Shown here: positions 6,655 to 62,410 of the stretch, one piece after another
Position numbering within the stretch: position 1 is the stretch's first letter
Layout: every line of letters starts with the position of its first letter
NCBI GenBank assembly: GCA_036785375.1
Contig: JAWMAR010000652.1
Span: 620,001 to 684,000, forward strand
Source of the DNA: Leucoraja ocellata
Lineage: Eukaryota
Reading direction: 5' to 3'
DNA length: 64,000 nt
Made by a program: the position numbers and the translations under genes
Notes under the pieces: generated by a model
The model's input: the letters and a program-made list of their open reading frames with translations, nothing else
Told to the model about the DNA's origin: nothing
The model's database searches: none

Positions 6655-7177
6655 AAATGACCGATGAAGTCTCACAAGGGGAACTGATCCAGAAGATTAA
6701 GACCCATTGTGACTTGGTCATTTGGATTCAGAACTGACTCAGAGGACAGAGGGTTGTGGTGGAAAGGTTGGAAGTCTGAGACCAGCTGAAATTACGCAGG
6801 TATGTGCTAGGGCTATGGTGTTTCTGAAAAATATACAAACTAGGATATTCATGTAAATGTTTAAGAAGGAACTGCAGATGCTGGAAAATCGAAAGTAGAC
6901 AAAAGAGCTGGAGAAACTCAGCGGGTGAGGCAGATTCTATGGAGCAAAGGAACTAGGCAACGTATCGGGCCGAAACCCTTCTTCCATTCAGAAGGGTTTT
7001 GGCCCGAAACGTTGCCTATTAATGTAAATGGGTTGGTTAGTAGGTTTGCAGATGACACCAAAACCAGTGAAGTGAGGAAGGCTGCCAAAGTATTCATTGC
7101 CTTATAAGATCAGCTATAGTAATGTACGGAGAAAAAGCAGATGGAGTTTAATCCGACTGAGCACAAGGTGTAGCATT

Positions 7178-7212
<35 letters not shown>

Positions 7213-7770: not shown

Positions 7771-7793
7771 GAAAATGGGGGTAGGTATTCTAA

Positions 7794-8001: not shown

Positions 8002-8377
8002 AAATAATCTTTTAAGAACCTTTGATCTGCTGGATTCCAGAGCCTCGACCGCAGGAGGCAATTTCAACCCACCGATCGGCCGCATAGGTGCCAATGAGGT
8101 TGAGATCGGTCCCCTCAACCAGCCTGGGCACATTTTCGGTGGGGATTTCTGGAAGGGGGGGGTTCAAGTGTGCTCTCGAGGATTTTTTCCCCCAGTTTAA
8201 AGGAAGTGCCAGACCACCAGTTATCAGAAAATCAATGGTGGACCTGTAGTAGCAGGACTGTGAAACATCCACAAACAAAGGGAATATCACATCAAACTAA
8301 ACATCTTAGGCTTTATGATAACGATGCTCTGTGGAGCACACGCAACAGGTATGTATTGATATAAAATTGTAGGGGAG

Positions 8378-8547
8378 AATTCAAAGTGCTGGAATAACCC
8401 AACAGATCAGGCATCATGTCTGGGGGACATGGATAGGTGACATCTTGGAATGCCGCCTACCCATGTCCGCCAGAGATGCTGCCTGACCTATTGAGCAACC
8501 AGCGCTTTGTGTTCTACGCAAGATTCCATCATCTGAAGCTTCTTGTA
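8378..8547. mobile_element. Older head-to-head Penelope-derived element
   Basis: caaagtgctgg...cagatcaggcatc is mirrored by gatgctgcctgacc...ccagcgctttg. Confidence 0.65.
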
Positions 8548-13019: not shown

Positions 13020-13770
13020 GCTTGATATGCTTGCTTTCATTGGCCAGGGTATTGAGTGCAAGTCAGGAAGTCACGTTGCAGCTTCACAAAACTGGTACTG
13101 CCACATTTGAAGTATTGTGTGCAACTCAAGTCGCCCCATTATAAACGGATATGGAGAGGGTGCAGAAGGGGTTTATCATGTTGCTACATTGCTTAGTGTA
13201 TCAGCTGTAACGTGAGGTTGGATAAACTTGGGAATTTTTTTCTGGAGCAGAGATCGAGGGGCAACTTGGTATAAGTATATAAATTATGAGACGCATAGAT
13301 AAGATAAGACAATCAGAATGTTTTTCCCAGGGTGTAAATGTCGCAGATTAGAGGATATAGGTTTAAGGGGAGAGGAGATAAGCTTAATGGATAAGATAAG
13401 AGTCTGAAGAAGGGTTTTGGCCTGAAACATTGCCCATTTCCTTCGCTCCACAGATGCTGCCACACCCGCTGAGTTTCTCCAACATTTTTGTCTACCTTCG
13501 ATTTTCCAGCATCTGCAGTTCCTTCTTGAACATAAGTTTAAAGGAGACGCGTGGGGCAAGTTTTTTTTAAAATTTATTTTATTTATTTTTTTACACACAG
13601 AGTGGTGGGTGCCTGAAGTGCACCACCAGAGATGGTGGAGGAAGCATATATGACAGTGGCATTTTAGATACACACATTAATATCCAGGGAATGGAAGGAT
13701 GTGGGCAGAGTTTAAATTGACATCATGCTCAGCACATATATTGTTTGTGCCAAAGTGCTGTTTTATTCTA
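13020..13770 (+). mobile_element. Degraded CR1 LINE 3' fragment
   Basis: cttcattggccagggtattgagt, gtattgtgtgca and gtttaagg..agagg remnants. Confidence 0.65.
13388..13531 (+). mobile_element. Penelope-derived short element inside a CR1 fragment
   Basis: CTGAAGAAGGG...CCTGAAAC plus the family tail; approximate TSD ATAAG(C/T)TTAA at 13378-13387 and 13532-13541. Confidence 0.8.
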
Positions 13771-14854: not shown

Positions 14855-14955
14855 CCCATTCCTTCGCTCCAGAGATGCTGCCTGACCCGCTGAGTTACTC
14901 CAGCATTTTGCGACTACCTTAATTTAAACCAGCATCTGCAGTTCTTTACCACACA
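14855..14955 (+). mobile_element. Penelope-derived tail fragment
   Basis: ccattccttcgctccagagatgctgcctgacccgctgagttactccagca...cagcatctgcagtt family sequence. Confidence 0.75.
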
Positions 14956-15142: not shown

Positions 15143-16061
15143 ATTTCTTTAAATATGTAAAAAGGAAAAGATTAGTGAAAACAAATGTAGGTCCCTTACA
15201 GGTGAATTTATAATGGGAAACAAGGAAATGGCAGAACAGTTAAACGAGTACTTTGGTTCTGTCTTCACTAAGGAAGACAAACAATCCCAGAAATACTAGT
15301 GGACTGGGTATCTAGTGGGAGGGAGGAACTGAAGGGAATCCACATTAGTCAGGAAATGGTGTTGGGTAAACTGTTGGGATTGAAGGCAGATAAATCCCCA
15401 GGGCCTGATGGTTTGCATTCCAGAATACCTAAGGAGGTGGCCCTAGAAATCGTGGATGCATTGGTGATCATTTTCCAATGTTCTCTCGACGCTGGATCAG
15501 TTCCTGTGGACTGGAGGGTAGCCAATGTAACTCCATTTGTTAAGAAAGGAGAGAAAACATGGAATTATAGACCAGTTAGCCTTACATCGGTAGTGGGGAA
15601 GATGCTTGAATCGATTATTAAAGATGTTATAGCAGAGCATTTGGAAAGCAGTGACAGGATCAGAAGGGTCTCCGTCCGAAACATCACCTATTCCTTTGCT
15701 CCATGGATGCTGCCTCACCCACTGAGTTTCTCCAGCATGTTTGTCTACCACAGGATCAGTCAAAATCAGCATGGATTTATGAAGGACAAATCATGCTTGA
15801 CTAATCTACTTGAATTTTTTGAGGATGTAACAAGTAGAATGGATAAGGGAAAGCCAGTGGATGGCATGCACCTGGACTTTCAGAAAGCCTTTAGCAAGGT
15901 TCCACACAAGGGATTAGTGTGCAAAATTAGAGCACATGGTATTCAGAGTACTATATTGACATGGATAGAAAACCGGTTGGCAGACAGGAAGCAAAGAGTA
16001 GGAATTAACGGGTCCTTTTCAGAATGGCAGGCAATAACTAGTGGGGTGTCACAAGGCTCAG
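15143..16061 (+). mobile_element. CR1-class LINE ORF2 (RT) fragment
   Basis: KSPGPDG, WRVANVTP, NYRPVSLTSVVGK, QHGFMK, LDFQKAF, SGVSQGS motifs. Confidence 0.92.
15664..15749 (+). mobile_element. Penelope-derived short element inserted in frame into CR1 ORF2
   Basis: TSD ACAGGATCAG at 15654-15663 and 15750-15759; net insertion 96 nt. Confidence 0.85.
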
Positions 16062-19000
16062 AACCCGTCTTCTTTTACCTTAACGCTATCATTTCTCTTC
16101 TGGTCCAAACACTTCCCACCCATATATGTCATCTCACTTGTCGTCCATCATTTTGATAAATTCCAATTTTCCTAGCCCGTTTCATCATTATTATGGGTCC
16201 CCATTCCTCCACAAAAGTCTGGTTCCCCTTGCCCTTCACCTCTCTCCTAGTGGTTTCCTTATCACCTTCCTTACTTATCACATCATAGCATTGTCAGCCT
16301 ATGCATACTTGCCTATAACCCTCCAGCAGTTGTTTGAGGAATCATCATCACCTGCCTTTATTGGCTGACTCCATCTATCATCCACCTGCCTCTTCCTCAA
16401 AATACCACATCCTCCTCCCCAGCTGCCCATCATCCCTCACCCTTCGTCGGTTCACCCACTGGTGAACATCTCATCACTGCTTCTCTCTTTATACCACCCT
16501 TAGTCCTAAAAAAGGGCTCATCCCAAAACATTGTCAATTCCTCCTCTTCTTCTCCCCCATTCCTTACAAATCCCTATTGTCATCAAACTACTGAACAGTC
16601 CGACCGTAAACAGATGCTAATCTTTCAACCTACCTCAATGCAAACCTTGCATTTTCTTTGCAACTATAATATTATAATGCTGTCACAAATTCTGCACTTG
16701 TATTTTTCTCTTTGTATTACCCATTGTGTTAGTGTGTAGCTTAATTGTACTCATGTATAGTATGAATTGACTGGATATTAAGCAAACAGAGCTGTTCATT
16801 GTATCATGGTATAAATGACAATAAACCAATACAAACACATCAAAACCATGATAATGCATTTATAAATGATAAAATATTCTCAATTTTAAATAATCTACTT
16901 TAAATTAGACAATAACACGTAAATTTGGTCCTTTATCATTATCAATAATACAAAGTTTCTTTGCAGTCAATGGGCAATTATAGGAAGATTATTCACTTCC
17001 CGACTTGCTTTAATTACAACCACTGTAAAATTTATACAAATTAAATATATGGATCTCTAAATGGATAATTAAATATTAATCATAAAAATAATAACTATAT
17101 ACAAGCAAAAGTTAATATTCCTTACTAATAGGGAAACTTCATATCAAGTTCATTTCCTCTATGTTTAATTTTCTTCCGAATATCTGCTTTATGACCTGCT
17201 GAATATAGCCACTAAATGAAAATATAGTGAGCAGAGTGACAAGAGACATTTGTCCATTTTAATCACTTTATTGTTCAAATCTACTTTACTGAAAGAACAA
17301 TGTGCATCAGGCACATTAAATGTTTACCAAATCATATTTTGGTTAATTAAACGAGATAGATCACAATTTCTTATGTTTCAGTAAATCTAAAGGGTGGGTT
17401 TTTGCAAGTGGTGTTCAATATCCTACCCATAGGTCTCATCCATCTTCCCAGCTCTCTGGAGTTTTTAACAAGCCACAAGCACCAGATAGATACAAGGTCC
17501 TTATCATTAGCTCAGCTACTTTCTACATGTATGCTGAACTTTAAATGCTCCTAATAAACTAAATTGCAACTGTTCATTTAAAAGATCTGACCACCACTTA
17601 CAATAGACAAAGCATATCTTATAATTAAACCAGCCAACCACTATCTCATAGCCACATTTATAAAGGTAGCTGAAAGCACTTAAACCATTCCAGATCATTG
17701 AGCTCTGCATCTTTTAGTTGCTCCAGTGACCAAGAAACATATGTAGTTCGTTCAACTCCATATAATTCCTCCCGAATTATCAATGATTGTGATAAAACTT
17801 ATTTTCTCTCAATTTGTATGTTCTATAAACAAAAATGAAATATTGTTGGGGTAGCCAGCATGCACTTTGTCAGGAGTGGATTCTCCTCAGAATGGCATGG
17901 ATGGAGACTTCTTGTCTATTTCCTATTTATATCACAATGTATTGGTATTGAAAAATTGTATGAGAATTAAATTTAAAATATTATGACATCGTTGCATTGC
18001 AAAATTCAGGAGAAAACTGACAATCTATTTTTTATAGAAGCAATTGGGGAGCATTTGGCTCCCAAAAGTGTAGGTATTGAAAGAGGGCACATGCCATCAC
18101 ATTTCCCTGGCATTTTCTCATTGCTTCTTAATTATGTATTTTTCCTTATTTTTTTTAAATAGGAACCCGAGGGGCAACTTTTTCCACACAGACAGTGGTG
18201 GGTATATGGAAAGAGCTGCCAGAAATAGTTGAGGCAGATACTACAACATTTAAATGTCAGAACATGGGCAACATTGAGTAACATGTGCAATTTTAATCTG
18301 GGCTATAGCAGGTTTTGTTTCAATTGCGCATTCAAGGATTTCTAAGCCTTTGTTTGGCTATTGAGTCTTCTGGGTGATGAGTTTATACATATGATTCTCC
18401 CAGATTGGCAGTATTAAAAAAAAAAAAAAGGAATCCATTAATGGTGTGTTTGCAATCTAACCAGCAAGTGTAAATAAATGTGTTAATACATTCTTGTACA
18501 TGAGCATTCGGGTCATCAATCTAGTCCGCAAAAGTTGTGCACCAGACTATTATGTTTAACTATTACCCAGGAAGTTTGCACTTTTTGATCCCTGCAATTC
18601 ATTTTGTTGCTTATGATTTGCCCAGTAGCTTTGAAGTTCCAGTTCCACTCGACTTCTTTCACTCAAGCTTCCTTTTCCAGGTATCTGGTCAAAAGTCAAC
18701 TTCTAATTTGTCTGCAAAGCAGAAGCTCACTAATCCAATTTGCAAAAAAGAATTTGGATATAGGCCAAGCTCAATAGCAAAATTCAACAATTAATTTAAA
18801 ATAAGCATACACATGAATTATAAACCAGCTCTTTCTCACGTACACCTCTGCCAAAGGTTAACGAAAATCAAATACTGCAGTCATTCTTCACAAGTAGAAA
18901 TGAAAATTCTAGGTATGCATACATAGTACATGGATTTTCATATTTATGTATCCATTATTGGTTAAAAATGTAATTAAAAACTATATGGCCTTATAATTAA

Positions 19001-31188: not shown

Positions 31189-31409
31189 ATAAGGCACACG
31201 AGGCTGCGGATGCTGGAATCTTAAGCAAAAAAACTCTTGGAAATACTCAACAGGCCATATAGCATTTATGTTGGGAAATTGATAGATGGTATTTCATGTC
31301 AGGAATCTTCTTCAGTCTGAAGAAGGGTCCCAACCCAAAATGATTTCTGTCCATTTTCCTTCACAGGTGCTGGCTGACCCACTGAGTTCTTCCAGTAGTT
31401 TGTTTTTGC
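31189..31409. mobile_element. Palindromic (head-to-head) Penelope-derived element
   Basis: Centre cttcttcag-t-ctgaagaag; 13-bp TSD CCAATTTTAGACA at 31176-31188 and 31410-31422. Confidence 0.82.
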
Positions 31410-32547
31410 CCAATTTTAGACATGTTTGTTAAATGTGATACCATAGAAAGTAGTAATGCTGGTTTACATGTATTATTCCCATCACTGCAAGAGTTTGGTA
31501 ATGGCCTGGTTAGTGAATGTGCCAAGTCTTAGAACTTCATCAATTACTGGCTGAAGTAACAAATCAAACGCACACCATACTTCCTTCTACTAATTTTATT
31601 GTGACATTGAGATAGCCTTCAGAGCAAATTCTCCAAATTACACTAAACAATCTAGAGAGATACAAAATTCAAGCAGATCGAATTACTGAGGTAATGGACA
31701 CGAAAGTGAAACAAATAGATCTATCCCCAACAAGTTTTCACGGTATAAAATTAATTGTATTTGCATGAATGCTTACATAGATATTATTACATTTTAATTT
31801 ATCTGTGACAATTGATGGACATATTCCTCTAGTAAAGATAGTACACATAATTAAAGTGAATATTTATAGGCAAATTATTAATAGACATAAGTGTAAAAAA
31901 CCCTGAAAACATAATCAAAATTGAAATTTCTGACCAAAACTAAAAATGTAATACCTGGAAATTAATTTAGATAGAAACTCTTAGAACTCCCAGAATGTCC
32001 TGCATTATTACATTGATTTTGAGAATGTAGGAATAAATTGCTAATCATGTTAGAATTTGTAAGTGCAATTTTTTAGAACAAAACAACATAGTAATGACAA
32101 GTATCGGTTAGAAGAAATCCTGACTAAATCATATTTGAGATGAAGTGTGTGTTTATCAGGTATTAACATAAGCTAAATGCTTCTATTTTAATTGGGGCCA
32201 AAAAGATAAATATTTGTAACAGGAAACCATATTAGTGATGTCAAAATAAGACCATGTCTCGATTCTTAATTAGTTTTAAAACATACAAAACATTTCAGCA
32301 ATATGATTTACGGCAGCAGGACTATAAGCATCAAAATGGATCAAACAAAATTAATATTTAACGACAGTCTTACTCAAAGACTGGAATGAATTATTTCATA
32401 TTATACAATTGTTCACTCACTGCGGTGTGCCACAGTTTTGTACACAAATTGGAATTTACAATGAGGTTGTGCAGCAGAAAAACAATATAAATCTTCTCTG
32501 ATGAAATTTTGGATATGTAAATTTTCAGTGGCAATTCTTAGCTTTAA

Positions 32548-32661
<114 letters not shown>

Positions 32662-33150
32662 TTAGGAGGGGGAGACAATGTAAACATGAGCATTAATAAG
32701 CAAAGGAAACTATCAAGAATGAACTAACATATGTTCTATTTTTATGAATGCCTTCAGCAATAAGAAATGGACTTGCATTATGTTATCTATAAATTTTACA
32801 CACCATTTTACACATGGAAATAGGTTTTTAATGTATCTGGGTCTTTGATAACATAATTTTGAGCAATTTATTTTACCCATGCTGCTTTAGTTATCCATTT
32901 ATCATTTGTAATGTTATTCAATGAGTAATATAGAAATAAGAATGGTTGTATTTTCTGTCCCATTACTAAATTGAACTCCGTTTCAATAAAACTAATTCTT
33001 ACTCAAATAAGAGGAACTGTAAACCTGCTGTCATAGTGCAAGATATTAATTTTAAGGTATCTCCATCTTCCTTCTTTAATGTTGTTAAATGTAGATGCAT
33101 ATTTAGAACATATCAAATAAAATATGCATGCTGTCAAAAAACACTGCCTA

Positions 33151-34765: not shown

Positions 34766-35447
34766 TATGTGATCCTTTCCAAGTAACTGTTTCAAAATTA
34801 TCAATAGCAAACTTCCAACCACATATTCCAACTCCACTTTTATTAAACCTATACTCCATTGAAGAACTGAAAATATCGGCATAAACATAGATTTAAAATA
34901 AATGAATAAATAAATGATTGTAGGTTAATTAGCTTCTATGATTTGCCCCTAGGGTGCAGGGAGAGATTGAGAAAGTGGGATAATGTGGGACCAGTGTGAA
35001 CATGTGGGTGATGTAGACCATGCTGTATCTCTACATTAAACTAAACACAACGTCTTTGGAATCAAGGTGAAGTAGGGTTTGAAGATAAAGGAAATGTCTT
35101 CCTAATACCACACTAGGTTTATAAAGTAAGTATCTAGGCCATAAGAGGCCAGAAAGATCTTGGGCTCAAATATTAGTTGATGCAAGAGCTAAACTTTACT
35201 TGACGCACCACAATAATTTCGATTTGGCTTTGTTTCTTTGAGAAAGTACAAAGTAGCCAACATTTTTATTGTCGATTTATATTAAATGATTCCAGATGAA
35301 ATGACAATGACTGAAGATGTAATAAGCTTACAAATTTTAATATACAATCAACATACATGAGCTTGATGTATGTGTGCAAAGACATGGCAGGATCAATTGC
35401 AGATATGATGTCCCATATATTGAAATAATTTTCAAACAAACATTAAG

Positions 35448-35574
35448 TGTAAGAAGGAATTGCAGATGCTAATTTACGCCATAGACCCCAAATGTTGGAG
35501 TAACTCAGCAGGACAGGCAGCATCTCTGGATAGAAAGAAAGGGTGACATTTCGGGTTGAGACCCTTCTTCAGAC
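35448..35574 (-). mobile_element. Penelope-derived short element
   Basis: Minus strand gtCTGAAGAagggtctcaacccGAAATGTCaccc plus the family tail. Confidence 0.78.
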
Positions 35575-38014: not shown

Positions 38015-38317
<303 letters not shown>

Positions 38318-39127
38318 CTAATCTAAAACAAGAAACGCCATCTCAGCAACTAAAGAGATATGCCGAGGTATATATCACCTCTGGAAATAAATGTATTACA
38401 TAAATGGGCAAATGTTGTTGCATTGAGCCATGCAGGATAGAAAACCTAATATTTTGATCTGCATTTCTGAGGCAGGAGGGCACTTGAAAAAAAAACAGGC
38501 AAAATGAGCCAGGTTTCTTTTTTCCAATTCCTTTCCTGTAGCCTGTTGATTTTCAGCAAATTGGTCAGAGCTCATGTGATATTGGAAGAGGATTAGAATC
38601 AGCAACAATGCTTCAATGTTTTCGAATGAAACAACTACCTCCCAAAAATGTATTAGAAGGGGAAGTGGAGAAAATAAAGTCAAATTGTTTGCTGCAGTTC
38701 ATAGAGTGTAAAATATCATTGTGTGGCAATAGTGGGAAATCAAAAGCTTCAAGTGCATTGTCAGTTAATGGATCATAATTGTAGCACAGTAAAACAAATG
38801 TTGATCTACTGGCAAGCCAGTCTACATATACTAATAGCCTCTAGCTATGTACAAATAAGTTTTTTATATATATGTCAACTGACCATTCTTCAAAATCACC
38901 GCAATAGAAAAATATCTTTGGGACTCCGTTTACCATAATTTTATTGTTTTCTTTTGCACCACTCTACCCACACAAGAGGGCACAATGCAAAAAATTGAAT
39001 TTAGTACAATAAAATCGCACTTTGCCAGTGATTCAGTAATTATAAATAATCTTCAACATGCCCTGAAGTTAAACAACTACACCCACACAAAATGTAATAT
39101 AGCAAAAGATATTAAACCACATTCTTA

Positions 39128-39232
<105 letters not shown>

Positions 39233-40177
39233 TCATTTCATTCATTCCTTTAAAGAATTGAGAGCCATGTTTTTTTTTAAATTTCACACTTATTAAGATA
39301 GATAAATCAATCTCATTTATATATAAGCATGTAAACATCATCATTAACATTTTCTTGGATGACGGCAAAAAAAGAGAAAATAAATCCTCCTAAATTGAAC
39401 AACAGTTAAGTTGTATTTTACCTTAAACATTTTAAAAATATGTGATCATGTAATTTTTTAAAAAATGTGATAACTTCTCGAACAGCGGGTGGGGGGGGGG
39501 GAGGCAAATTCGACCCTCCGAATGGCGCGGAAGTCCCGATGAGGTCGAGATAGGCCGCCTCACCCAGCCCAGGCACCACATTTTGGGGCGACTTCAGCGG
39601 GAAAATTCAAGTGTGCTCTCGTGATTTGGTCCAGATTAATTGAGGTGCCAGATCATCGGTTGCCGGAAAATTGGTGGTGGACTTGTACTTATGTATATTA
39701 TTATCTGATCTGATTAGATAGCATGCAAAACAAAAGCTTTTCACAGTACCTCGATACACGTGACAATAATAAACCTAAACCCAAACCATAATCGTACTAT
39801 TCTCCCAATGACCAGACTTCTCCACGACCATCTGCAAGGGCAGATGATCCGGTGATGGGACAATCAAGAAAGAAGAAGATGCTTGCTTGACCTCCTCCTC
39901 ATTAAAACTACCTGTTGCAGACCATCTTCCCATTACAGAGTTTCTGTGCTAACTTGGTGAAGCAGCAGCACATACATGCTAAACAGTGGAAATTGCAAAC
40001 TGTCAATTGTGCCAAAGAATCCCACTGCCAACAAACCATATATAGTTGTGAATAGTGGTGGACAATTTCACAAATAAGTAGGGAAGTTTTCATGAATATC
40101 TTCATTCAAAATGGCAGAGCCCAACTTGGGTTGGCACGGTGACACAGCTGTAGAGTTGCTGCTTTATAGCGCCAGAC

Positions 40178-41107
40178 ACCTGGAGATTAGTGGGCAAAAT
40201 TAGAGCACATGGTATTGAGGGTAGGATATTGGCATGGATAGAGAATTGGTTGGCAGACAGGAAACAAAGAGTAGGAATAATCGGGTCCCTGTCAGAATGT
40301 ATGGACTTGGTGAATGGAGTGCCGCAAGGCTCAATGCTGGGGTCGCAACTATTTACAATAAATATTAATGATTTAGATGATGGGATTAAAAGTAACACTA
40401 GCAAATTTGCAGATGACACAAAGCTGGGTGGCAGTGTGAACTGCGAAGAGGATGCTAGGAGATTGCAGGGTAACTTGGGACAGGTTGAGTGAGTGGGCAG
40501 ATGCATGGCAGATGCAGTATAATGTAGATAAATGTGAGGTTATCCACTTTGGCGGCAAGAACAAGGAGGCAGATTATTATCTCAATGGTGTCAGATTAGG
40601 AAAAAGGGAAGTGCAACGAGACCTGGATGACTTTGTACACCAGTCACTGAAAGTAAACATGCAGGTACAGCAGGCAGTGAAGAAAGCTAATGGCATGTTG
40701 GCCTTCATAAAGAGAGGATTTGAGTACAGGAGTAAAGAGGTCCTGCAGTTGTTCAGGGACCCGGTGAATCAACATCTAGAATATTGTGTGCAGATTTGGT
40801 CTCCTAATTTGAGAAGGACATCCTTGCTATTGAGGCAGTGCAGCGTAGGGTCACGAGGTTAATCCTCGGGATGGCGGGACTGTCATATGAGGAAAGATTG
40901 GAAAGACTGGGCCTGTATTCACTGGAATTTAGAAGGATGAGAGGAGATCTTATAGAAACATATAACATTATAAAAGGACTGGACAAGCTAGATGCAGGAA
41001 AAATGTTCCCAATGTTGGGGGAGTCCAGAACCAGGGGCCACAGTCTAAGAATAAAGGGGAGGCCATTTAAAACTGAGATGAGGAAAAACTTTTTCACCCA
41101 GAGAGTT
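40178..41107 (+). mobile_element. CR1-class LINE ORF2 3' fragment, frameshifted
   Basis: Three overlapping ORFs containing GVPQGSMLG, KFADDTKLGG, WQMQYNVDKC, LEYCVQIWSP and GLYSLEFRRMRGDLIE. Confidence 0.93.
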
Positions 41108-41255
41108 GGGGACTATGCGTCAGTGGTGCAATATCGCGTTGGGGGGACGGGTTGCATTGGGGGAATGGGTGAGTGGTGGAATATTGAATTGGGGAACGGG
41201 TTGGGGGACCAGGCCTCCTATGTGACAGGGACCCAGCGAGGCCCACTTAGTCTAG
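41108..41255 (+). mobile_element. Helitron-like 3' end abutting a truncated CR1
   Basis: gggacccagcgaggcccacttagtCTAG|t, a decayed version of the 48945-48974 terminus. Confidence 0.55.
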
Positions 41256-41665
41256 TCATTTGTAAAACCGATCCAAGACTACTATCATTTTGGTATTCAT
41301 GATCATGAATGCATTGGAGGGGTTCCAGTGTGTGATAACCTTAACAAGACTTTAGAAAATAAATTACTTCTAAGCACTCAGAAAAATATACAACAGCATT
41401 CTTCCATTCCTATTTAGAATTACACTATTCATACATATACTATACAATTCAACCACAAGTTCTCCATTGACAAAGTCACTTCCGATTCTGCGTGGTTGAG
41501 GTTGATCAAAAACAGAACTAAAACTATGTTCTGTTTGATGAAACAGATGAATGAAAATATTAATAAAACCCAATTAGGCGAGTGATCTTCTAAATTAGAA
41601 TTGGTATTTTACTGATGTTGTAGTTAATCTATTAGGTGGGAATCCAAAGTATTTATTACGCATTA

Positions 41666-41866
<201 letters not shown>

Positions 41867-42369
41867 TTAGTGTAATTTCAAAGGTTTTAAAACCTATAAC
41901 CTCACTTCCACCAAAGGTATCTTTTGAAATTATACTAAAGTAAATATAAATTTGAATAACAAAATATTAATTTAAAATGCATTTTTAGTATGATAATGAC
42001 AACATTGAAGATGAACAATATAATTTAATGATTTTGCACTATAAGTAGAAGAAAACTTGCAACCTAGATGAGTATGGATGAGTTGGGCTGAAGGGCCTGT
42101 TTCTATGCTGCATAGCACTATGACTAAAATAAACCATATTTTCAAATTTGAAATGAAATATGACTGCACCCTTTTCCAGTTAGCTAAGTTATGACATGAT
42201 AAAAAAGTATTAACATAAACCAAATCAGCCATATATTTACTGCATGCATAACAAAGAGATAATTTAATAATCAAGGAGATTCAATTAGGATAACATCCAC
42301 AGAAAATATGTTGGAAAGCAAATCCAAATCCATCAAAAAACAACATTTGGGGATTTTCTCCTATATGTG

Positions 42370-42660
42370 AGCTCCTGCTCACAGCACCAACAATCCTGAC
42401 CTCCAGTGTTGTCTTGTGTGGACAAACACCCTATGACTGTAGGTTTTCTCCAGGAACTCTGGTTTCCTCCCCCATTCCAAAACTGTGTTAATTGGACACT
42501 TTGAATTTCCCCCGAATGCGTAGATAAGTTGGAGAATTGGGATGCAGGTGGAGGTAAGTTAATGAGAACATGTGGAGAGTAAAAGGGGTTAATGTAGGAA
42601 TACTGTAAAAATGGGTTATTGATGGTAGGCATGGACTAAGTGTGCCTGTGCATGCTGTAC
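42370..42660 (+). mobile_element. Degraded V-SINE
   Basis: ctcacagcacca...ggttttctccaggaactctggtttcctccc...gatggtaggcatggact. Confidence 0.65.
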
Positions 42661-44111
42661 CTTCCCATGTTTATATGAATCTAACCTACCCTTCATTGTA
42701 AGCCAAAATAGTAAAATAGCGTAGACAATTTATTCATATAATTTAAAGCAGTTCTTCCCTGAATTTAGTACCAATAAATTGAAGCATGTAAGAGTTTCAA
42801 ATATTTCACTCGACAATGCTAACGTACTATTTTACAGACCTACAGAACGAGCTGCCAGAGGAAGGGTGCAATAGTGATGATTAACAGTATTTAAACGGGT
42901 TCATGAATCAAAAAGGTTTAGTGGGAAAAGGGTTAAACACAGGCAAATTAGACTATTTCATTAAAACTGGTCAGCAGACAAGTTGCGCTGATTTCATGCT
43001 ATTATCACTCTATGACTATTGCTATTTGTACTGACACATAAAGAGAACAGCAAACAACACTTGCTATCTACTGCCATTGATTCTGCTTGCCTCATAGTGG
43101 CAGGTTTGTGTAGCCCTGATGAATCCATGTGATATGGCTAGACATAAATAAGGCTCACAATTATACTTTCAAGGGTAGAAGGCTCACCATGTTGTTCATA
43201 AAACTAAAACAGATGCATCTACAGCTATCTGGAAATGCATTCCCATTTTTGGGGGGGGGGGGGTGGAAGAAAATCACCCCCCCCCCCCCAGCTGTAGTGA
43301 AGAGGCAAAGGAAATGCCATTATTTCTGTTCTTGGAAGAAAGCCTTGGAGAGTTACTTTACAATTAAAGAACAAAAATAAAAAAGTATTAATTGCATAGC
43401 TTTGTAATTAATAGGAACAATTTACCAAGAAAAATTAAGTATAAATTTGTATTCACACATTCATAATTTGAATCATTTTAAACTTCAGGCAATACCAATT
43501 TTAGTTTAGAGAGCATATAGATAGGAGTAGGCTCATAATTACGAACACTTAATTGTAATATTATTATAATGATATAGAATATTACTTAACTATACAAACA
43601 TGATCTAACAGGACAAAAATGCAATGCACCACTTTTGCTTGGGTAGAGGAATGTTATACAATGAACGTTTGTGCTGAATGTGCACATGGGACGCCATTTG
43701 AATTAATCAGGGCAAATATTTATGCCGTGCCTAGCTTTACTTTATGTCCTGTCTCTTTTTATAATTGTTTCAACAGTCATAAAAATAATAAAATTAAAAT
43801 CATACCCCCACAAAAATCACACTGATATAATAAAGAAAAGACTGATACCATAATGAAAACAAATTGTCTATTATGCTTTGCCCAATGACCAATTTCTGAG
43901 GATATATCAATTATGCAACAGGCAATAAGGATAAGTAATATTTGGAAACATAAGGAAAATAGTCGTCAAGGTTGTTTTACTGTCATATGTCCCAGATAGA
44001 ACAATGACATTTTTATTTGCAGCAGCACAACAAAATATGTAAACATAGTACACAGTAAACAATATAATAAACGAGGGAACATAATGTCCAGTGCGTGCGT
44101 GTATATACACA

Positions 44112-44244
44112 NNNNNNNNNNNNNNNNNNNNNNNNNNNNNNNNNNNNNNNNNNNNNNNNNNNNNNNNNNNNNNNNNNNNNNNNNNNNNNNNNNNNNNNNN
44201 NNNNNNNNNNNNNNNNNNNNNNNNNNNNNNNNNNNNNNNNNNNN
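44112..44244. other. Assembly gap (N run)
   Basis: Run of N. Confidence 1.
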
Positions 44245-44335
44245 TTATGCTTCCTGGCATGTAGGGCAGCATCGAAGGTCCTCCACTCCTGTCTGTTCTG
44301 GGCTAGCTTCTGGACACTACCCAAGGTTAGGTCCA
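44245..44335 (-). mobile_element. RTE-class LINE 3' fragment
   Basis: LGSVQKLAQNRQEWRTF..AL is the typical RTE C-terminal A.DR..WR motif. Confidence 0.55.
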
Positions 44336-44504
44336 CATATACATATACACACACACACACACAAGTCAAGTCACATTTATTTATATATCACATTTAAAAA
44401 ACAACTCACGTTGGCCAAAGTGCTTTACATTTGTTATAAGAATATATAATAAAATATATATATATACACACACAAACGTGCACAAAAAACAAAAAAATAC
44501 TTAC

Positions 44505-44530
44505 TTTATGAACTCAAGGATAAACTTTGG
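44505..44530 (-). CDS. DPM1: DPM1 exon 5, 26 nt
   Basis: PKFILEFI(K); tttcag| acceptor and |gtaagt donor; 95-nt upstream intron. Confidence 0.94.
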
Positions 44531-44571
44531 CTGAAATTAAAGATAAAAAGTTTAGTTCGATAAGTACATCA

Positions 44572-44718
<147 letters not shown>

Positions 44719-52375: not shown

Positions 52376-52654
52376 CTACCATCCAGCCAGGGAAAGAAAA
52401 TCTTTTCAATCAGTGCTTATCAAGTTACAATTCGCATTTTAAAAACATTATGAATAGGGAAACCATTGCAACCTTTTCAGCCAGACTGCAACAACTGCAG
52501 CAGAAAATCCCAATAAGTCACTTTTATAAAGATGTAAATAAAATGTAACTGGGCCAAGTAAAGCAGAAGTATTGTACCAAAGAAGACACAAGCAACCGCA
52601 TTGCAGATGCTGGAATCTTGCTTTTCGGGTCGGGATGCTTCTTCAGACTGCTAC

Positions 52655-54330
52655 TCCGAATAAGGGTCCCGTTATGTTACATGTTAATTGGCCACTGTAA
52701 ATTGCCCTTAGTGTTTTGGGGGTGGATGAGAAAGTGGGATAACATAGGACTAGGAGGTACACAAAAATGCTGGAGAAACTCAGCGGGTGCATCAGCATCT
52801 ATGGAGCGAAGGAAATAGGCAAAGTTTTGGGCCGAAACCTTTCTTCAGATTAATGGGGACGGGGGGGGAGAAGGAAGGAAAAAGGGAGGAGGAGGAACCC
52901 GAGGGCGGGGGGATGGGAGGAGACAGCTCGAGGGTGAAGGAAGGGGAGGAGACAGCAAGGGCTAGCAAAACTGGGAGAATTCAACGTTCATGCCATCTGC
53001 ACGCAAGCAACCCAGGCGGAATATGAGGTGCTGTTCCTCCAATTTCCGGTGTTGCTCACTCTGGCAATGGACCCAGGACAGAGAGGTCGGATTGGGAATG
53101 GGAGGGGGAGTTGAAGTGCTGAGCCACCGGGAGTTCAGGTAGGTTATTGCGGACTGAGCAGAGGTGTTCGGCGAAACGATCGCCCAACCTCCGCTTAGTC
53201 TCCCCGATGTAAATCAGCTGACATCTAGAGCAGTGGATGCAGTAGATGAGGTTGGAGGAGATACAGGTGAACCTTTGTCGCACCTGGAACGACTGCTTGG
53301 GTCCTTGAATGGAGTCGAGGGGGGAGGTGAAGGGACAGGTGTTGCATTTCTTGCAGTTGCAACGGAAAGTGCCCGGGGCGGGGGTGGTACGGGAGGGAAG
53401 GGAAGAATTGACAAGGGAGTTGCGGAGGGAGCGGTCTTTGCGGAAGGCAGACATAGGGGGAGATGGGAAGATGTGGCGAGTGGTGGGGTCACGTTGGAGG
53501 TGGCGGAAATGGCGGAGGATTATTTGTTGTATTTGCCGGCTGGTGGGGTGAAAGGTGAGGACTAGGGGGACTCTGCCCTTGTTGCGAGTGCGGGGATGGG
53601 GAGAGAGAGCAGTGTTGCGGGGTATGGATGAGACCCTGGTGCAAGCCTCATCTATGGTGGCGGAGGGGAATCCCCGTTCCCTGAAGAACGAGGACATTTC
53701 CGATGCCCTGGTGTGGAACGTCTCATCCTGGGAGCAGATGCGGCGTAGACGGAGGAAATGGGAGTAGGGGATGGAGTCTTTACAGGGGGCAGGGTGGGAA
53801 AACGTGTAATCCAGATAGCCATGTGAGTCAGTTGGTTTGTAGTGTATGTCGGTCAGAAGTCTGTCCCCTGCGATGGAGATGGTGAGGTCAAGGAATGGTA
53901 GGGAAGTGTCGGAAATGGTCCAGGTGTATTGGAGTGTCGGATGGAAGTTGGTGGTGAAGTGGATGAAGTCAGTCAGTTGTGTGTGGGTGCAGGAGGTGGC
54001 TCCAAAGCAGTCGTCAATGTAACGGAGGTAGAGGTCGGGGATGGGGCCCTGGTACGTATTGAACAAGGATTGTTCAACGTACCCGACAAAGAGGCAGGCG
54101 TAGCTGGGGCCCATGCGTGTGCCCATAGCTACGCCTTGTATTTGGAGGAAATGGGAGGAGTCAAACGTAAAGTTGTTGAGGGTGAGGACCAACTCCGCTA
54201 GGCGGAGGAGGGTGTCAGTGGCTGGGTATAGGTTGCTCCTCACATAGGACTAGTGTGAATAGATAATTGACAGTCAGCTTGGACTCGTTGGGCAGAAGGG
54301 GCATGTTACCATGCTGTTTCTTTCAGTCAA
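52655..54330 (+). mobile_element. V-SINE 3' half split by the Penelope insertion (pieces about 52655-52753 and 54254-54330)
   Basis: gttaattggccactgtaaattgccc...gggataacataggactag | tgtgaa...ttggactcgttgggcagaagg is continuous once the insertion is removed. Confidence 0.7.
52754..54241 (-). mobile_element. 5'-truncated Penelope-like retroelement (RT C-terminal half plus GIY-YIG endonuclease plus 3' terminal repeat)
   Basis: The ORF has QIQGVAMGTRMGPSYA, YLRYIDD, FLDL and NLIYCIHCSRCQLIYIGET. After a frameshift near 53070 it continues HCQSEQHRKLEEQHLIFRLG...GMNVEF to a stop at 52962. 12-bp TSD ACATAGGACTAG at 52742-52753 and 54242-54253. It interrupts a V-SINE. Confidence 0.94.
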
Positions 54331-54637
54331 TCTAAAAATATTTCTTAGCTCTGAACACCTTCAAAGATGTAGCGCTGTGATAGAGAATTTCACTTTCATG
54401 ACTTTCCAAAGAAATTCATCCTTGTCTCTGTATTGAAAGAGTAACCACTTATTCTTAAACTAGACTTCCTACAACATGCCATTTGCAAACCGCAAATGCA
54501 AAAAATAAATTTTACAAGAATAATTCACTTCTGAAGTGTCCCTTATTCCCATGCTGGTCATAAATGATACAAATTTCCAAATATGTGTGAACTGCACAAA
54601 ATAATCCAATTGCATCATGCAACCAATTTTAGATTGA

Positions 54638-54886
54638 AGGTTACACAAAAAAGCTGGAGAAACTCAGCGGGTGCAGCAGCATTCTATGGAGCGAAGGAAA
54701 TAGGCAACGTTTCGGGCCGAAACCCTTCTTCAGACTGATCGGGGCGGGGGTGGGTGGGGACAAGAAAGGGAAAAGGAGGAGTAGCCAGAAGGCTGGGGGA
54801 TGGGAGGAGACAGCAGGGGGCTGAGGAAGGGAGGAGACAGCAAGGACTAACAAAATTGGGAGAATCGATGTTCATGCTCCCGGAGA
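54638..54886 (-). mobile_element. Short Penelope-like 3' fragment with an intact hammerhead-like motif
   Basis: Similar to 52754-52990; 14-bp TSD CAATTTTAGATTGA at 54624-54637 and 54887-54900. Confidence 0.88.
54706..54740 (-). ncRNA. Putative minimal (type I) hammerhead ribozyme motif in a Penelope terminal repeat
   Basis: Minus strand reads gaucagu-CUGAAGA-A-GGG-uuucgg-CCC-GAAAC-GUU: conserved core boxes, stem II and a palindromic AACGUU stem III. Confidence 0.6.
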
Positions 54887-55006
54887 CAATTTTAGATTGA
54901 GTTCTGCATTACACAATGAACTTCTAGCCCATCATCTTTACTAACGTAGCTTCACTTCCTTTCAATCTCCTTAACTTTGAAATTCTGCTGACTATTTAGT
55001 TAGAAC

Positions 55007-55423
55007 TGGTGCGCTGATCTCTACGTGGCTGAGGTCACGCGCCAACCATGACCCCACAGACGAGCACCAGGCCACCATCCCAAATCCAACCTTTCCTCCG
55101 TGGCCCGAGTGAGGACCACTGTAAATTGGAGGAGCAGCACCTCATATTTCGCTTGGGCAGTTTACACCCCAGCGGTATGAACATTGACTTCTTTAATTTC
55201 AGGTAGTCCCTGCTTTCTCTTCCCCTTCTCAGCTCTCCCTCAGCCCTCTGGCTGCGCCTCTTCCTTTCTTCTTCCCCCCCCCCACCCTCACATCAGTCTG
55301 AAGAAAGGTCCGACCCGAAACGTTGCCCATTTCCTTCGCTCCATAGATGCTGCCTCTCCTGAGTTTCTCCAGCATTTTTGTCTACCTTCGATTTTCCGGC
55401 ATCTGCTGTTCCTTCTAAAACAT
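55007..55423 (+). mobile_element. Penelope-like 3' fragment (GIY-YIG C-terminus plus terminal repeat)
   Basis: Encodes SEDHCKLEEQHLIFRLGSLHPSGMNIDF; 12-bp TSD TTTAGTTAGAAC at 54995-55006 and 55424-55435. Confidence 0.88.
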
Positions 55424-56209
55424 TTTAGTTAGAACCATCGTTAAAATCCAAACACTATTCAGTGATACTGAAACCAAATTCCCATGTTGAGCATCTGTTT
55501 TCAATATTCTAGCATGTTAAATCCTGTATTATTTACAAATGTTTTAATTATAACATAAAAATACAGTAGTTCAAAGTTAATGTACAATATTCCCTTGCAT
55601 TCTACCGGTAGTGCAATTCTAGAAAATTGCTTCGGGTTTCCGATGTGCTTGACGTACCTGAACAAGGAGACTGATGCACAGCAAGATCAAGTGGCATGCA
55701 ATCCATGTTTTGGTGCCACATGTCAAAAATGATTGTTTGCATATGACGTCTGCAAACTGTGTAAACCATTCATTTTGAAGTAAGCCTTCTCCAGAGATTA
55801 GAGAAAGCCTTATCAGGAACGTTAGTTTGAGAGGGCTTGACCTTGCCTGTTGCAGGGGTATCTAAGGCACTGAAAGTCTTCCAGGTGGATTCTCCTTGGA
55901 GTAGATTTCTTGTGGTTGCTCTCAGTCTCCAGATTTCCTTGTTAGCTACATTCTCAGACTACCCAATGCCATGTCAAAATAAAACTCACTGCCCTCCAAT
56001 TGCATATGCCACTGGTCCGCACGGACATTTCTCAGACTGACTCACACAGACTGCCAACTCCCAAACATTACCAACTACACCCTATCTCCCATCAACACCT
56101 TCCTAAGCCAAACTTATTACCGCTCAATTATCCATTGCTTCCTGCACCAACATGTCCCAAACTCCCCAATCATGCCTCTGGCCGCACTGTAGACTGATTG
56201 TTACCTCTA

Positions 56210-56385
56210 GAAACAAAGAACAGCAGTTTTACAATAAAAAGACACAAAGTGCTGGAGTAACTCAGTGGGTCGTATCGGGCTGGGACCCTTCTTCTGAAGA
56301 AGAATCCCAACCCGAAACATCACATATCCAGGTTCTCCAGGATGCTGCCTGACTCGCTGAGTTACTCCAGCACTGTGTCTGATTT
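56210..56385. mobile_element. Palindromic Penelope-derived element
   Basis: gacacaaagtgctggagtaactcag ... ctgagttactccagcactgtgtc, with centre cttctt-ctgaagaag. Confidence 0.78.
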
Positions 56386-59300
56386 TACTTTTACCTGTTT
56401 TTACCTCTCTCTCTGCTCCAATGAATTAAATCCCAGACTTCTTCCAAGTAGAAAGTATAAGCAAGTATATTCAATAAATCCCATCTCAATACCTGGAACT
56501 TGATTTTGAATTCAGAATTTTATTTCTGCCACATTCTAATTTTAACATAACGAATCATCAAGAAACGAATAAATAATGAACACACACTGAAATTCAAACA
56601 TCATTCAAAAATAAAAGTTTCTGCTATGGCATTTCTCCCAATTTAGGTCCTTCGTTTTCTGGCTCAGTTTGCAAGCTGTCTCTTGCCAAGACATCGCCAT
56701 TCCTGCCTTGCGTTAGCTTTCTTCAATTTTTCCAATTTCTCCTTGGACAAAGTTGTCTAGAACTTAGATTACAGCTTTATTTGTTGATCATAGTCTTTAG
56801 TACTGAAATGCAATTGCCCCTTACAAATGTAGTGAAATAGCATCCATGATCACACACTGAAAAGGGACCCTCGAACTTCCTTAGTGGACCTCGCCTAATT
56901 GGCACATCTGCAGACATTTGACACTCTAGTCTAATCCCTCAGAGACATATTCGCCAGAAGAGCCACACATCAGGAACACACAATGATAGGCAAAATGGTA
57001 CAGAGGAACAGAGTTCGTTTGTTCAACCGGATGTATACCCAGGTGGTGGTGTAAGAATGGAGGCCAAGAGCAAGGTCCTATATGCAAAGGGGGTGTGCGG
57101 CAGTGAAGTGTTCAATTAGAAGGATGCAGCAAGACAAATATAAGGAGAGGTTGGACAAACTTGGACTGTTTTCTCAAAAAGCGTTGGATAAAAGTATATT
57201 AACTTATGAAATGTATTTCTTATTTCTCCAGGTCTTGGGGATTTTGGAAATATGATATTTGATCCCCTCAGTCAAATCATCAATACAAGTAGTGAATAAT
57301 TGGAGCCGAAGCACTAAGCCCCACAGTACGCCACTAGTCACAGCCTGCCAACCCGAGAAAGAGCTGTTGATTCCCAATCTTTGCTTTCTTCTAACAAACT
57401 CTCAATCTATTATCCTCAACTCTCCAATCTCCTACTATTCCACTTACACACTTACACTCACCTCCTCTCCCTATACCAAACTCCAACTTTCAACTCTATG
57501 TTGATATTCTAGCCCCTCTTTAACTCCTACACAACATAACCTTCCTCAATGATGAAAATGAAATGAAATATTTACTCATCTCCTTCATTCATGTAAAGAC
57601 AATGAGGAAGACACCATCGACAAGGGAGGGAGCCCTCCAAAGATCAATGTCGGTGTGAGGTTGTGATCCACACCGAGAATGATGAACTGAGGGGCCATCA
57701 AGCCCCAAACACCATCTACATCTGTTGCCATTCATAATCTGCCAGGTACGTTCACTAACAAATAGCTATAGTGAATATTACAACCAATTTGATTTGATCA
57801 ATAATACTCATTACAGCTGCACTACGAGATTACTACAAATATGTTTCTGTCACATCTTACATGTGCAACAAGCCTCTTATTTATAATTGCAGGGTATCAG
57901 CAGAGGTTGCCTCTTTCACTCCACGAGAAGGGAAGGGGGAGAGCAGTAAGTGGGGGGGGGGGGAGAGGAGGAATAGAAGGGGACACAAGGATGGATACAG
58001 ATAGAGACATTGGAGAGGGACTGTGTGTACATTTTGGAAATAAATGTGCCTTTGCCTCCTGCCTCACATCCCTGAATCACTCTACCTGGCCAACTATTAC
58101 CATAGCAATGCCTATAGTGATAGATTGGTGCCTGTGGTGTTACTACTGAGCCTCCCCAAATTTTATTTTGCTGGAAAAGCACTTGTTCCAACTGTAGTAC
58201 ATTATGAAGATTCTGGAGGCCGTTTGCACAGTCTGCAAACAGCTTTTGAGAGTGCTGAAGGCATGGATCAATGTCTCGGTTTCAGAGGAGTATCCTTTTT
58301 AAAACAACAAAGTAACATAATATCCTGGTTCAGCTGTGAATATTCATTGAAGGTCCCTCATGCCAGTAATAGTGGAAATAAACATTGCACATTGAAAATG
58401 TCACTGAGTGTGTGTGTGATGATGGGAAAATATTAAGTACACTTGAATAATAGTTGTAAATGCTCAGTCCAGTTTCAAGGGCGGGAAGGAATTTAACAGG
58501 AAATAATCACAGTTCTACCTCACTGAAACACAAACTAAATGGCCACTGCGTGTGATTTGCACAAACAGTTACACCGAGCTCCAGTTACTCGGCTGGTGGT
58601 TCAGTTTTGGTTAATGACTCTAACAATGAAAAGTGGCAATCAAAGTTCCCTTGTGCAAAATTATACACTTCAAAGATGTTGTACCGAAAGGTACAGGTCT
58701 CCCTCAGCCAGTGAACATTCATAGCTACAAAGGGTTTAAATTAAAATGCTATTTAGCAGTCTGTGATATTTAGAATGAGGGGGAAATAACTCTATTGAGC
58801 ATCTGCACACATCCATCTGGCAATAATAACCATTGAGCGAATGGACTTGTATGCATTGGCTTTCAAGTTTTAGCTTGTCAAAACAACCACTGTTGACGTT
58901 GATTTACTGCAACCTTACTGGGAGGTGATTGACTAGCTTCTGACTACATTTCTTACCATCCACAGCAAGTGGTAACCCTGGTGAAAGATAAGGGTTCACT
59001 GTATATCCTGCCTTTGGAATTTTTCATATCGATGAATTTTTTTGAACTTAATCAATTCTTTAACTGGCAATAGCCTGTATATTAAATAAAGTATAATGCG
59101 TATCAGTAACTTTTATTAGACCAGAACATAGTATTTTATTTTAAGAAAAGGGTAGCATTACAATAATATTCCTGGTGGAAACAGACTAATTGCAGTCAAA
59201 TTTATAGTTTGATGCTCTATGTGGCTGACATTGGTTTTTCCCTGCAGTCTTTTGTGTGCCCGCAATTATACATTCCCATTCCTGTGTAGCTCACTTTTGA

Positions 59301-59844: not shown

Positions 59845-60030
59845 AAATGCTGGAAACACTTAGCAGGTCAGGCCACATCTGTGGGAAGCAAAATAGTCAA
59901 CTTTTCAGTTATGAGATCTTCGTCAAAACTCTGATTTATGCTGACAAAGGGTCTTTGACCTGAAACGTTGACCGTTTCTCTTCTTATTGATAAAGTCTGA
60001 TAGTGTTTCTAGCATTTTCTAATTTTGTTT
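59845..60030. mobile_element. Older palindromic Penelope-derived element
   Basis: aaatgctggaaacact ... agtgtttctagcattt arms; internal CTGACAAAgggtctttgacctGAAACGTT. Confidence 0.65.
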
Positions 60031-60722: not shown

Positions 60723-60814
60723 AGGTAGACAAAAAATCTGGAGAAACTCAGCAGGTGAGGCAGCATCTATGGAGCGAAGGAATAGGCGATGTTTTGGATC
60801 GAGACCCTTCTTCA
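60723..60814 (-). mobile_element. Penelope-derived short element
   Basis: 14-bp TSD GTACTATATGTTGT at 60709-60722 and 60815-60828. Confidence 0.85.
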
Positions 60815-62304: not shown

Positions 62305-62410
62305 TATCTGAAGAAGGGTCCGGATCTGAAACATCGCCTAGTCTTCCAGAGATGCTGCCTGACCTGAATTACTCCGGCACTTTGTGTCTTTTTTTGTAAA
62401 CCAGCATTAC
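62305..62410 (+). mobile_element. Penelope-derived short element
   Basis: CTGAAGAagggtccggatctGAAACATC plus the family tail. Confidence 0.75.

Follow-up and report, generated by a model that had tools for sequence, protein, structure and literature searches.

Short insertions in a skate genome most probably derived from a Neptune-clade Penelope-like element with a minimal type-I hammerhead motif

INTRODUCTION

Minimal hammerhead motifs have been described in the Neptune and Poseidon groups of Penelope-like retrotransposons (PLEs) of fishes, mostly as single motifs and in some cases on opposite strands, and 4,000-9,000 of them per genome were reported for coelacanth and frog (Xenopus) (PMC4209133). 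No chondrichthyan appears in Fig. S3 or Table S1 of that paper. Such motifs were inactive as monomers and slow as dimers, and the D. virilis motif cleaved weakly once stem III was extended (PMC4209133). In a published test one of nine frog dimers cut. The anole PLE motif cuts only together with its protein and is dispensable for insertion; reverse transcription starts at two internal sites 3' of the hammerhead, both target strands are extended, and product length tracks the 5' end of the RNA (PMC11167929). The pLTR of D. virilis Penelope contains an internal promoter of the initiator type (PMC2377424).

The Neptune clade is defined by a CX2-5CxxC linker between the reverse transcriptase (RT) and the endonuclease (EN), found also in Nematis, together with a CCHH motif in the EN (PMC8557442). 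Retrozymes, which likewise carry type-I hammerheads, were found in the one chondrichthyan sampled in a 2026 preprint (bioRxiv 10.64898/2026.07.22.740005). The present analysis concerns a stretch of 64,000 nucleotides from Leucoraja ocellata, referred to as the window, and a hammerhead-like repeat family within it. These repeats are most probably genomic fossils of several subfamilies of a Neptune-clade PLE whose pLTR carried a minimal type-I hammerhead.

RESULTS

The preliminary description had listed ten copies sharing the motif CTGAAGA-A-stem II-GAAAC-GTY. All ten coordinates belong to one dispersed repeat family, but the shared motif was wrong: it was matched by two of the ten, the copies at 54733 (-) and 55298 (+), the latter without the 10.1-11.1 pair. 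One of the quoted stems, GGTC-ttt-GACC, belongs to a copy at 59941 outside the listed ten. Searched with an nhmmer profile built from nine listed copies, the window gave 26 stretches at E values up to 1, and its reversed sequence gave none below E 1; a covariance model search of the window returned the identical set. The tally, which omits three weak nhmmer matches at 4424 (E 0.43), 14311 (E 0.012) and 27185 (E 0.015), came to about 16 insertions with 22 arms, covering about 3.8 kb or about 6% of the window. The claimed density of about one copy per 5 kb was thus upheld at about one insertion per 4 kb. The core with a paired 4-bp stem II occurred four times against a null mean of 0.015 (maximum 1 in 200 resamples), and a loose core pattern occurred six times against 0.94 expected, six being reached in none of 100 shuffles.

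The coding part of the family is represented by a 5'-truncated Neptune-type PLE at 52754..54241 (-). It retains the C-terminal part of the RT (YIDD), the thumb, a C-x4-C-x2-C linker and the GIY-YIG endonuclease, with a frameshift near 53070 and a stop codon at 52962-52964. The UTR follows, and a dead hammerhead copy (52821-52848) begins 114 nt past the stop codon. An exact 12-bp target duplication flanks the insertion. Among the 193 longer homologs of the frame, RT (PF00078) was present in most and GIY-YIG (PF01541) in some; the best was 55% identical. Pfam at its default threshold did not recognise the frame (GIY-YIG, E 0.0014, below the cut-off), so that the identification rests on the homologs. 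RT followed by a GIY-YIG endonuclease in one frame, here 5'-truncated and frameshifted near the C-terminus, is the arrangement of EN+ PLEs, and 5'-truncated insertions, inverted copies and an optional tail are likewise features of that group. The Penelope origin proposed earlier is borne out by the RT/GIY-YIG linkage, the target duplications and the tail.

In the alignment the CX2-5CxxC linker was present, C290, C295 and C298 being invariant and C322 and the later C/H positions nearly so. The assignment to Neptune is based on this linker and on the hammerhead of the relatives rather than on a tree with named references; the 120 homolog matches listed included no named PLE reference. The 64-kb window held no full-length element or tandem with two pLTRs, and for this reason no 5' pLTR was seen. 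The long copy sits inside another repeat, beside an older palindrome. Five PLE-derived insertions lie within 3.8 kb at 52585-56397, and a local insertion preference is possible.

The copies are target-primed insertions independent of one another. Of the 19 loci tested, 7 had target duplications of 10-14 bp, exact or with one mismatch, and in six cases the score exceeded that of all 150 null trials; at the other 12 loci none was found. The 3' ends formed two clusters, at +91..+95 or about +125..+128 from C3. Their spacing of about 34 nt matches the optional PLE tail of 30-40 bp (PMC8557442) and the two RT start sites of the anole PLE (PMC11167929).

The focal insertion, 54638..54886 (-), is the 3' end of a 5'-truncated PLE. 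It comprises the last GIY-YIG codons, a pyrimidine-rich UTR, the hammerhead motif, a stretch of about 68 nt downstream of it and a short 3' end without tail. Identity to the 3' end of the PLE at 52754-54241 was 84% over 240 nt, and the target duplication was exact over 14 bp (54624-54637 and 54887-54900). The sole perfect minimal type-I hammerhead motif in the window lies at 54706..54733 (-), with C3 at 54733 and U17 at 54706. It has the extra A after A9, stem II GGGU/GCCC with a UUCG loop, GAAA and the palindromic ACGU; helix I is just 2 bp (U-G, G-C). The sequence ATCAGT (54734..54739, -) follows a pyrimidine/C-rich tract directly 5' of C3 and overlaps the 5' strand of helix I. It is identical in the copy at 55298 (+) and mutated in that at 52848 (-), and from its letters it is a putative initiator-like element or 3' splice acceptor. 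It resembles the initiator consensus. Assuming a start 3 nt before C3, positions +28 to +32 (C15.2 to 1.1; 54701-54709, -) match four of five letters of the downstream promoter element consensus, a weak likeness that may be chance.

A 5'-truncated copy of another subfamily, 55007..55423 (+), contains an endonuclease C-terminal remnant, the UTR, the motif at 55298-55325 (G10.1A) and a long 3' end with tail. It has its own exact 12-bp target duplication. Because the duplications are separate, this copy and the focal one are independent insertions, and the possibility that both form one inverted unit was ruled out.

The short solo copies begin at or near the motif. The copy at 13401..13531 (+), with tail and G16.2A, starts 3 nt before C3; its candidate 10-bp duplication (one mismatch, 13 extra nt) was within the null range. 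The copy at 60723..60814 (-) runs from C3/U4 to the short 3' end, carries G12A and G16.2A and has an exact 14-bp target duplication. At 15664..15749 (+) a copy starting 6 nt into the motif lies inside a LINE RT reading frame (Pfam RVT_1 around it), with an exact 10-bp target duplication whose score was reached in 3 of 150 null trials. A copy with tail and a nearly intact motif (C15.2U), 35446..35574 (-), lies in a DPM1 intron on the sense strand; no target duplication was found there. The copy at 62307..62400 (+) starts 1 nt before C3, carries G16.2A and has no clear target duplication. In the copy at 14855..14950 (+), which has a tail, most of the motif is absent and homology begins about at the predicted cleavage site; its boundary is ambiguous and no target duplication was found. 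An old, decayed motif remnant lies at 16498..16544 (+) (covariance model E 7e-4, nhmmer E 0.017).

In six insertions two arms stand head to head; each has a junction of its own, and five of these junctions are at the 5' edge of the motif. The palindrome at 31189..31409 consists of two short copies joined there at a CAG-T-CTG micro-palindrome; both motifs are dead, only the minus arm has a tail, and one exact 13-bp target duplication surrounds the pair. The pair at 6860..7016 has a minus arm with tail, a plus arm of only about 31 nt, a junction inside box 1 and a 14-bp target duplication with one mismatch that outscored all 150 null trials. At 56209..56397 the junction is at C3-U4-G5 and the outer limits are taken from a weak 11-bp duplication; the insertion is predicted to fold as one long hairpin (z = -12.7 for 56237-56385). 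The old pair at 8377..8540 is joined further 3' (near C11.1-G12) and has a tail on the plus arm only. Another old pair, 59845..59990, belongs to a diverged subfamily with a CUGACGA-type box; it is decayed and was read by eye, as was a possible 4-bp helix I in its minus arm. In the remnant at 52585..52685 an internal deletion joins the motif to the tail. A single arm bore the tail in four of the six palindromes, and neither arm scored in the other two. A tail on the 56296 (-) arm was suggested by eye, did not score above the null and was left uncounted; the null maximum of 72 in this test probably came from a random window that hit a genuine copy. A single target duplication surrounding the whole pair was found in two of six.

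The core C3-A9, G12-A15.1, U16.1 and H17 and the extra nucleotide after A9 were those of the PLE minimal hammerhead; the paired stem II, G10.1-C11.1 and palindromic 15.2-16.2 were all present in the copy at 54733 (-) and nearly so in that at 35572 (-). A search of prokaryotic genome contigs yielded nine loci (L001-L009) with related elements of 45-56% protein identity. They lie on contigs of two GTDB 'bacterial' assemblies and are presumably animal DNA in binned assemblies, probably from a host. A motif lay near the element in eight of the nine, canonical in L003, L005, L006 and L009 and with U4C in L001-L004, L007 and L008, L003 having both. Where the matched coding end was present, the motif followed it at about 100-250 nt; the L008 motif is on the opposite strand and the L005 motif in an inverted copy. 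An exact DNA pattern had no match in the prokaryotic genome contigs.

Several further arrangements were seen in these loci. Six copies with the U4C core (L001 2615, L002 4119, L003 853, L004 1991 and L007 2062, all +, and L008 2373, -) belong to a Neptune-like family that was amplified recently. The canonical U4 is found in an inverted arm of L003 (601, -); the inverted PLE junction at L003 560-640 contains reiterated short copies of the motif's first box, and the inverted arm starts 3 nt before C3. A second hammerhead family occurs as inverted repeats in L002 (2187, +, and 295, -), with a 6-bp stem II, a palindromic ACAUGU stem III and a 3-bp helix I.

Hammerhead likeness arising by chance inside an ordinary repeat is very improbable. 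It would agree with the lack of an Rfam match, with the lack of both-sided covariation within the window and with the poor predicted fold. The relatives, however, keep the same position, boxes, extra A, G10.1-C11.1 and ACGU with different stems. The hammerhead-type motif and extra A of the preliminary description stand. The motif on the minus strand of L003 is identical to one published for Neptune of Acropora digitifera (PMC4209133, Fig. S3 / Table S1), and the window motif fits the consensus of that paper except in the length of helix I. In ten sequences (six from the window, four from the loci) stem II was 97.5% paired, with both-sided changes at two of four pairs; in helix I, both inner pairs likewise changed on each side. 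The covariation score of 0.49, which rests on three or four families and is inflated by relatedness, was reached in none of 500 shuffles, and slid controls gave at most 0.14. The related-locus motifs, the covariation and the Acropora match largely refute a chance origin. Stem II, whose pairing was previously described as kept within the window, changes there on a single side (U-A/U-G, and G-C/G-U by CpG decay); both-sided changes come in only with the relatives. For stem III, ACGU was confirmed and the alternative AACGUU dropped, which would pair A14 with the cleavage nucleotide. Rfam at the gathering score had no match in the whole window, and in E-value mode gave six weak matches in 52500-56500, none a hammerhead. 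These results are uninformative, because the published-type minimal motifs in L003, L006 and L009 were missed as well.

Once inserted, the motif decays as other DNA does, most rapidly at CpG sites. The 11-nt core was undamaged in 6 of the 16 arms scored position by position; one motif was perfect (54706-54733) and one nearly so (35545-35572), and the other 14 arms miss one or more of stem II pairing, G10.1-C11.1 and the palindromic 15.2-16.2. The CTG box is absent from the 6990 copy. G12A was found in the copies at 52848, 60815 and 31317, G16.2A, which breaks the ACGU palindrome, in those at 13404, 56294, 62308 and 60815, and C15.2U in that at 35572. Losses were concentrated at CpG sites (G12A in three and G16.2A in six of 12 younger arms). 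Nearly all window copies are unable to cut, and with one or two of 16 scored arms intact a large store of working ribozymes finds no support.

Private changes were about equally frequent in core and tail of the 12 younger arms (5/116 vs 34/561, p 0.66). Shared changes at non-CpG sites avoided the core (0/10 vs 16/48, p 0.048), in a small test that is borderline at the site level and used arms partly picked for having the core. This combination argues that the fold was probably kept in the master elements and lost in the copies by neutral decay.

The weak stem I of the preliminary description was confirmed as a helix I of 2 bp. The descriptor of PMC4209133 requires at least 3 bp, while the hand-found set of that paper includes 2-bp cases (Fig. 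S3). Because of the 2-bp helix I, the re-implemented descriptor finds none of the window copies (five matches in the related loci); with 2 bp allowed it finds three. Predicted pairing probabilities in the focal monomer were 0.05 for stem II and at most 0.01 for helix I, as against 0.7-1.0 and 0.1-0.9 in the relatives. The monomer is thus predicted not to adopt the hammerhead fold and prefers another hairpin. An alternative inactive hairpin, the UUCG loop pairing with CGAAAC, was strong only in one of the subfamilies, and no switch is proposed for it. The likely need for dimers noted earlier is supported. The window has no two intact copies close together on one strand, and two arms placed head to head are predicted to fold into one long hairpin.

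Whether the motif still served as a ribozyme in the young subfamilies is the more evenly contested point. On balance we lean towards a master-element motif that would act as a slow, conditional ribozyme, cutting only as an ACGU-paired dimer and/or with the PLE protein and trimming the precursor RNA. A vestigial hammerhead of the same PLE origin, its boxes kept as promoter elements or as a binding site for the PLE protein, is a serious but less probable alternative. The 2-bp helix I compares with 3-6 bp in the relatives, and the older window subfamily could form 4 bp. Ribozyme mutants of the anole PLE leave in vitro insertion unaffected, and none of the reads stop at the cut site (PMC11167929). 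Naiads, which lack the motif, have spread all the same (PMC8557442), and the related family was amplified with U4C, which is said to lower hammerhead activity (PMC3088659). Every window copy moreover spans sequence 3' of the cut site, so that uncut RNA was the template. Against loss of function, 10 of 10 non-CpG core positions were free of shared changes across subfamilies. H17 varies only between U and C and position 1.1 only between A and G, pairing with U2.1 being kept both ways. Published 2-bp examples also exist, and the weakly cleaving D. virilis motif with extended stem III (PMC4209133) is a further point for a conditional ribozyme.

Very probably, the PLE endonuclease would nick the target and the RT would then start from either of two sites inside the pLTR RNA, which is what was shown in vitro with the anole PLE. 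We somewhat favour a model for the remaining steps in which a start in the 5' pLTR would give a run of about 95 or 130 nt to an RNA 5' end about 3 nt before C3, yielding short solo copies. Two opposite-strand cDNAs, or one folded back, would be joined via the self-complementary AG(A/T)CT into palindromes with a tail on one arm; either route would yield a single target duplication and a one-arm tail. Of 13 insertions reaching offset +7, ten have 5' ends within -5..+6, and the other three extend to -153, -291 and -1393. Under random truncation such clustering has p <=6e-5, and the five of eight non-palindromic events alone p <=0.02 (0.02 at a 50-nt mean length); the clustering window was chosen post hoc, and a convincing target duplication is present in only four of the ten clustered events. 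The upstream flanks of the short copies are mutually unrelated, and those of the three long copies align.

A cause of the clustering other than a transcription start, namely a CAG splice acceptor, RT stalling at the low-complexity tract or CAG-T-CTG microhomology, is possible and rather doubtful. The tract is 85-95% pyrimidine and is followed by CAG, and the D. virilis Penelope intron ends at helix I (PMC4209133, PMC2377424). Templates spliced in this way should share an upstream exon, yet the flanks are unrelated, and no conserved splice donor was found by eye in the UTR. Stalling would place ends within the tract, but they fall before it. Palindrome junctions make up half of the clustered events, which suits microhomology, but the five solo copies cluster likewise. 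The inverted arm of L003 also starts at -3, and does so without an initiator-like A. A scan with bacterial promoter and terminator models, which have no relevance in a vertebrate, gave nothing.

The short copies are unlikely to be a self-propagating non-autonomous family, retrozyme-like or SINE/MITE-like, with its own and possibly circular RNA. The excess of short copies over coding remnants (13 vs 3), their common 5' and 3' limits and the derivation of retrozymes from pLTRs, with an occurrence in one chondrichthyan genome (bioRxiv 10.64898/2026.07.22.740005), would fit such a family. The motif occurred, however, in none of 20 TRF tandem-repeat rows of the window. The cut site lies within the copies and not at their ends, the one at 14855 being the only candidate exception, and the short copies have subfamily sequence in common with the coding one. 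No two of the six palindromes have the same junction, and they come from different subfamilies, so that no palindrome was amplified as a unit in the window. The retrozyme-like system envisaged earlier finds no support in the window, whose copies are separate insertions and by the tandem criterion no retrozymes.

The long frame at 222-3917 (-) is ADNP, its first 400 residues being 89-92% identical to named elasmobranch proteins and at most 64% to named proteins of other vertebrates, which supports the cartilaginous-fish host of the preliminary description. ADNP exons lie at 222-3917 and 4400-4500 (both -), the last exon with a 36-bp (12-codon) tandem repeat at 944-1272. DPM1-like exons, judged from short motifs to span 32500-44700 (-), include those at 32622 and 38167, and the focal copy lies 5' of them. 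Possible promoters of ADNP and DPM1 are the CpG-rich stretches at 24-26 kb and 49-50 kb. A Tc1/Sleeping Beauty-type transposon with inverted repeats of about 210 bp and a transposase remnant (33584-34267) occupies 33149-34767 in a DPM1 intron. Remnants of LINE reverse transcriptases, presumably CR1-like, were found at 15272-16156, interrupted by the PLE copy at 15664, and at 40102-41302. A MITE-like 60-bp inverted repeat around a 20-bp tandem unit (7821-7981) is unrelated to the PLE.

DISCUSSION

The family is classed as a PLE minimal hammerhead and would work in the same way; its ribozyme function is putative. Particular to it are the weak 2-bp helix I and the many very short copies. Hammerheads at PLE ends are established and known genome-wide in other fishes, which mostly limits the significance of the finding. 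The surprise expressed in the preliminary description is unwarranted, since genome-wide minimal hammerheads from truncated PLEs, including opposite-strand pairs, are already found in PMC4209133.

A broader reading is offered tentatively and is, taken as a whole, unlikely. The elasmobranch Neptune hammerhead would lie at the very 5' end of the transcript over the start site, and helix I would for that reason have shrunk to 2 bp. Priming in the 5' pLTR would mass-produce ribozyme-only insertions of about 95 and 130 bp, and priming on both strands palindromes that rebuild the initiator-like sequence on each strand. Tens of thousands of intact motifs may then have been overlooked in shark and ray genomes. 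If this were true, the insertion ends would be a genome-scale record of PLE integration. Extrapolated from one or two near-intact motifs per 64 kb, the number would be tens of thousands in a few-gigabase genome, a figure that one window cannot support. Descriptor searches demanding a 3-bp helix I would miss the family entirely. The abundant, datable fossil copies are usable for studying the PLE transcript start, both-strand priming and the role of the ribozyme in transposition. The literature search, outside which most subscription papers lay, gave nothing that deals specifically with PLE hammerheads of elasmobranchs or with clustering at the 5' edge. A study of PLE hammerhead dimers by Lunse et al. 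(RNA Biol) may list shark sequences.

Compared with the non-LTR retrozymes (PMC7229834; bioRxiv 10.64898/2026.07.22.740005), the window copies share the type-I hammerhead, pLTR ancestry, non-coding nature and vertebrate hosts, including one chondrichthyan. Those retrozymes are tandem units of about 170-400 nt expressed as circles, whereas the window copies are solo or head-to-head with target duplications.

The Anolis Poseidon element PAc (Frangieh et al. 2024, PMC11167929) has the same minimal motif, ACGU and short helix I. It also has two RT start sites defining the tail, an uncut RNA template, extension of both strands and protein-dependent cleavage, features likewise proposed for the window family. 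PAc belongs to another clade, its motif overlaps the start codon, and it was tested in vitro, while the window family is known from sequence alone.

With the Neptune EN+ PLEs the family shares the RT, the C-x4-C-x2-C linker, the C-terminal GIY-YIG, 5' truncation, inverted copies and the tail at one end; the closest published motif, that of Acropora digitifera, likewise has a 4-bp stem II with a tetraloop and ACGU. The window differs in holding only truncated, broken copies. The family also agrees with the PLE minimal hammerheads of Cervera & de la Pena (2014, PMC4209133) in CUGANGA plus an extra nucleotide, G10.1-C11.1, GAAA, palindromic 15.2-16.2 and NUH. Those too lie in the pLTR, mostly as single dispersed copies of truncated PLEs and also as opposite-strand pairs. 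Helix I in the window (G-C plus U-A or U-G) is at or below the weakest examples listed there, which have two G-C pairs, and the density of copies is higher in the window, if the window is typical.
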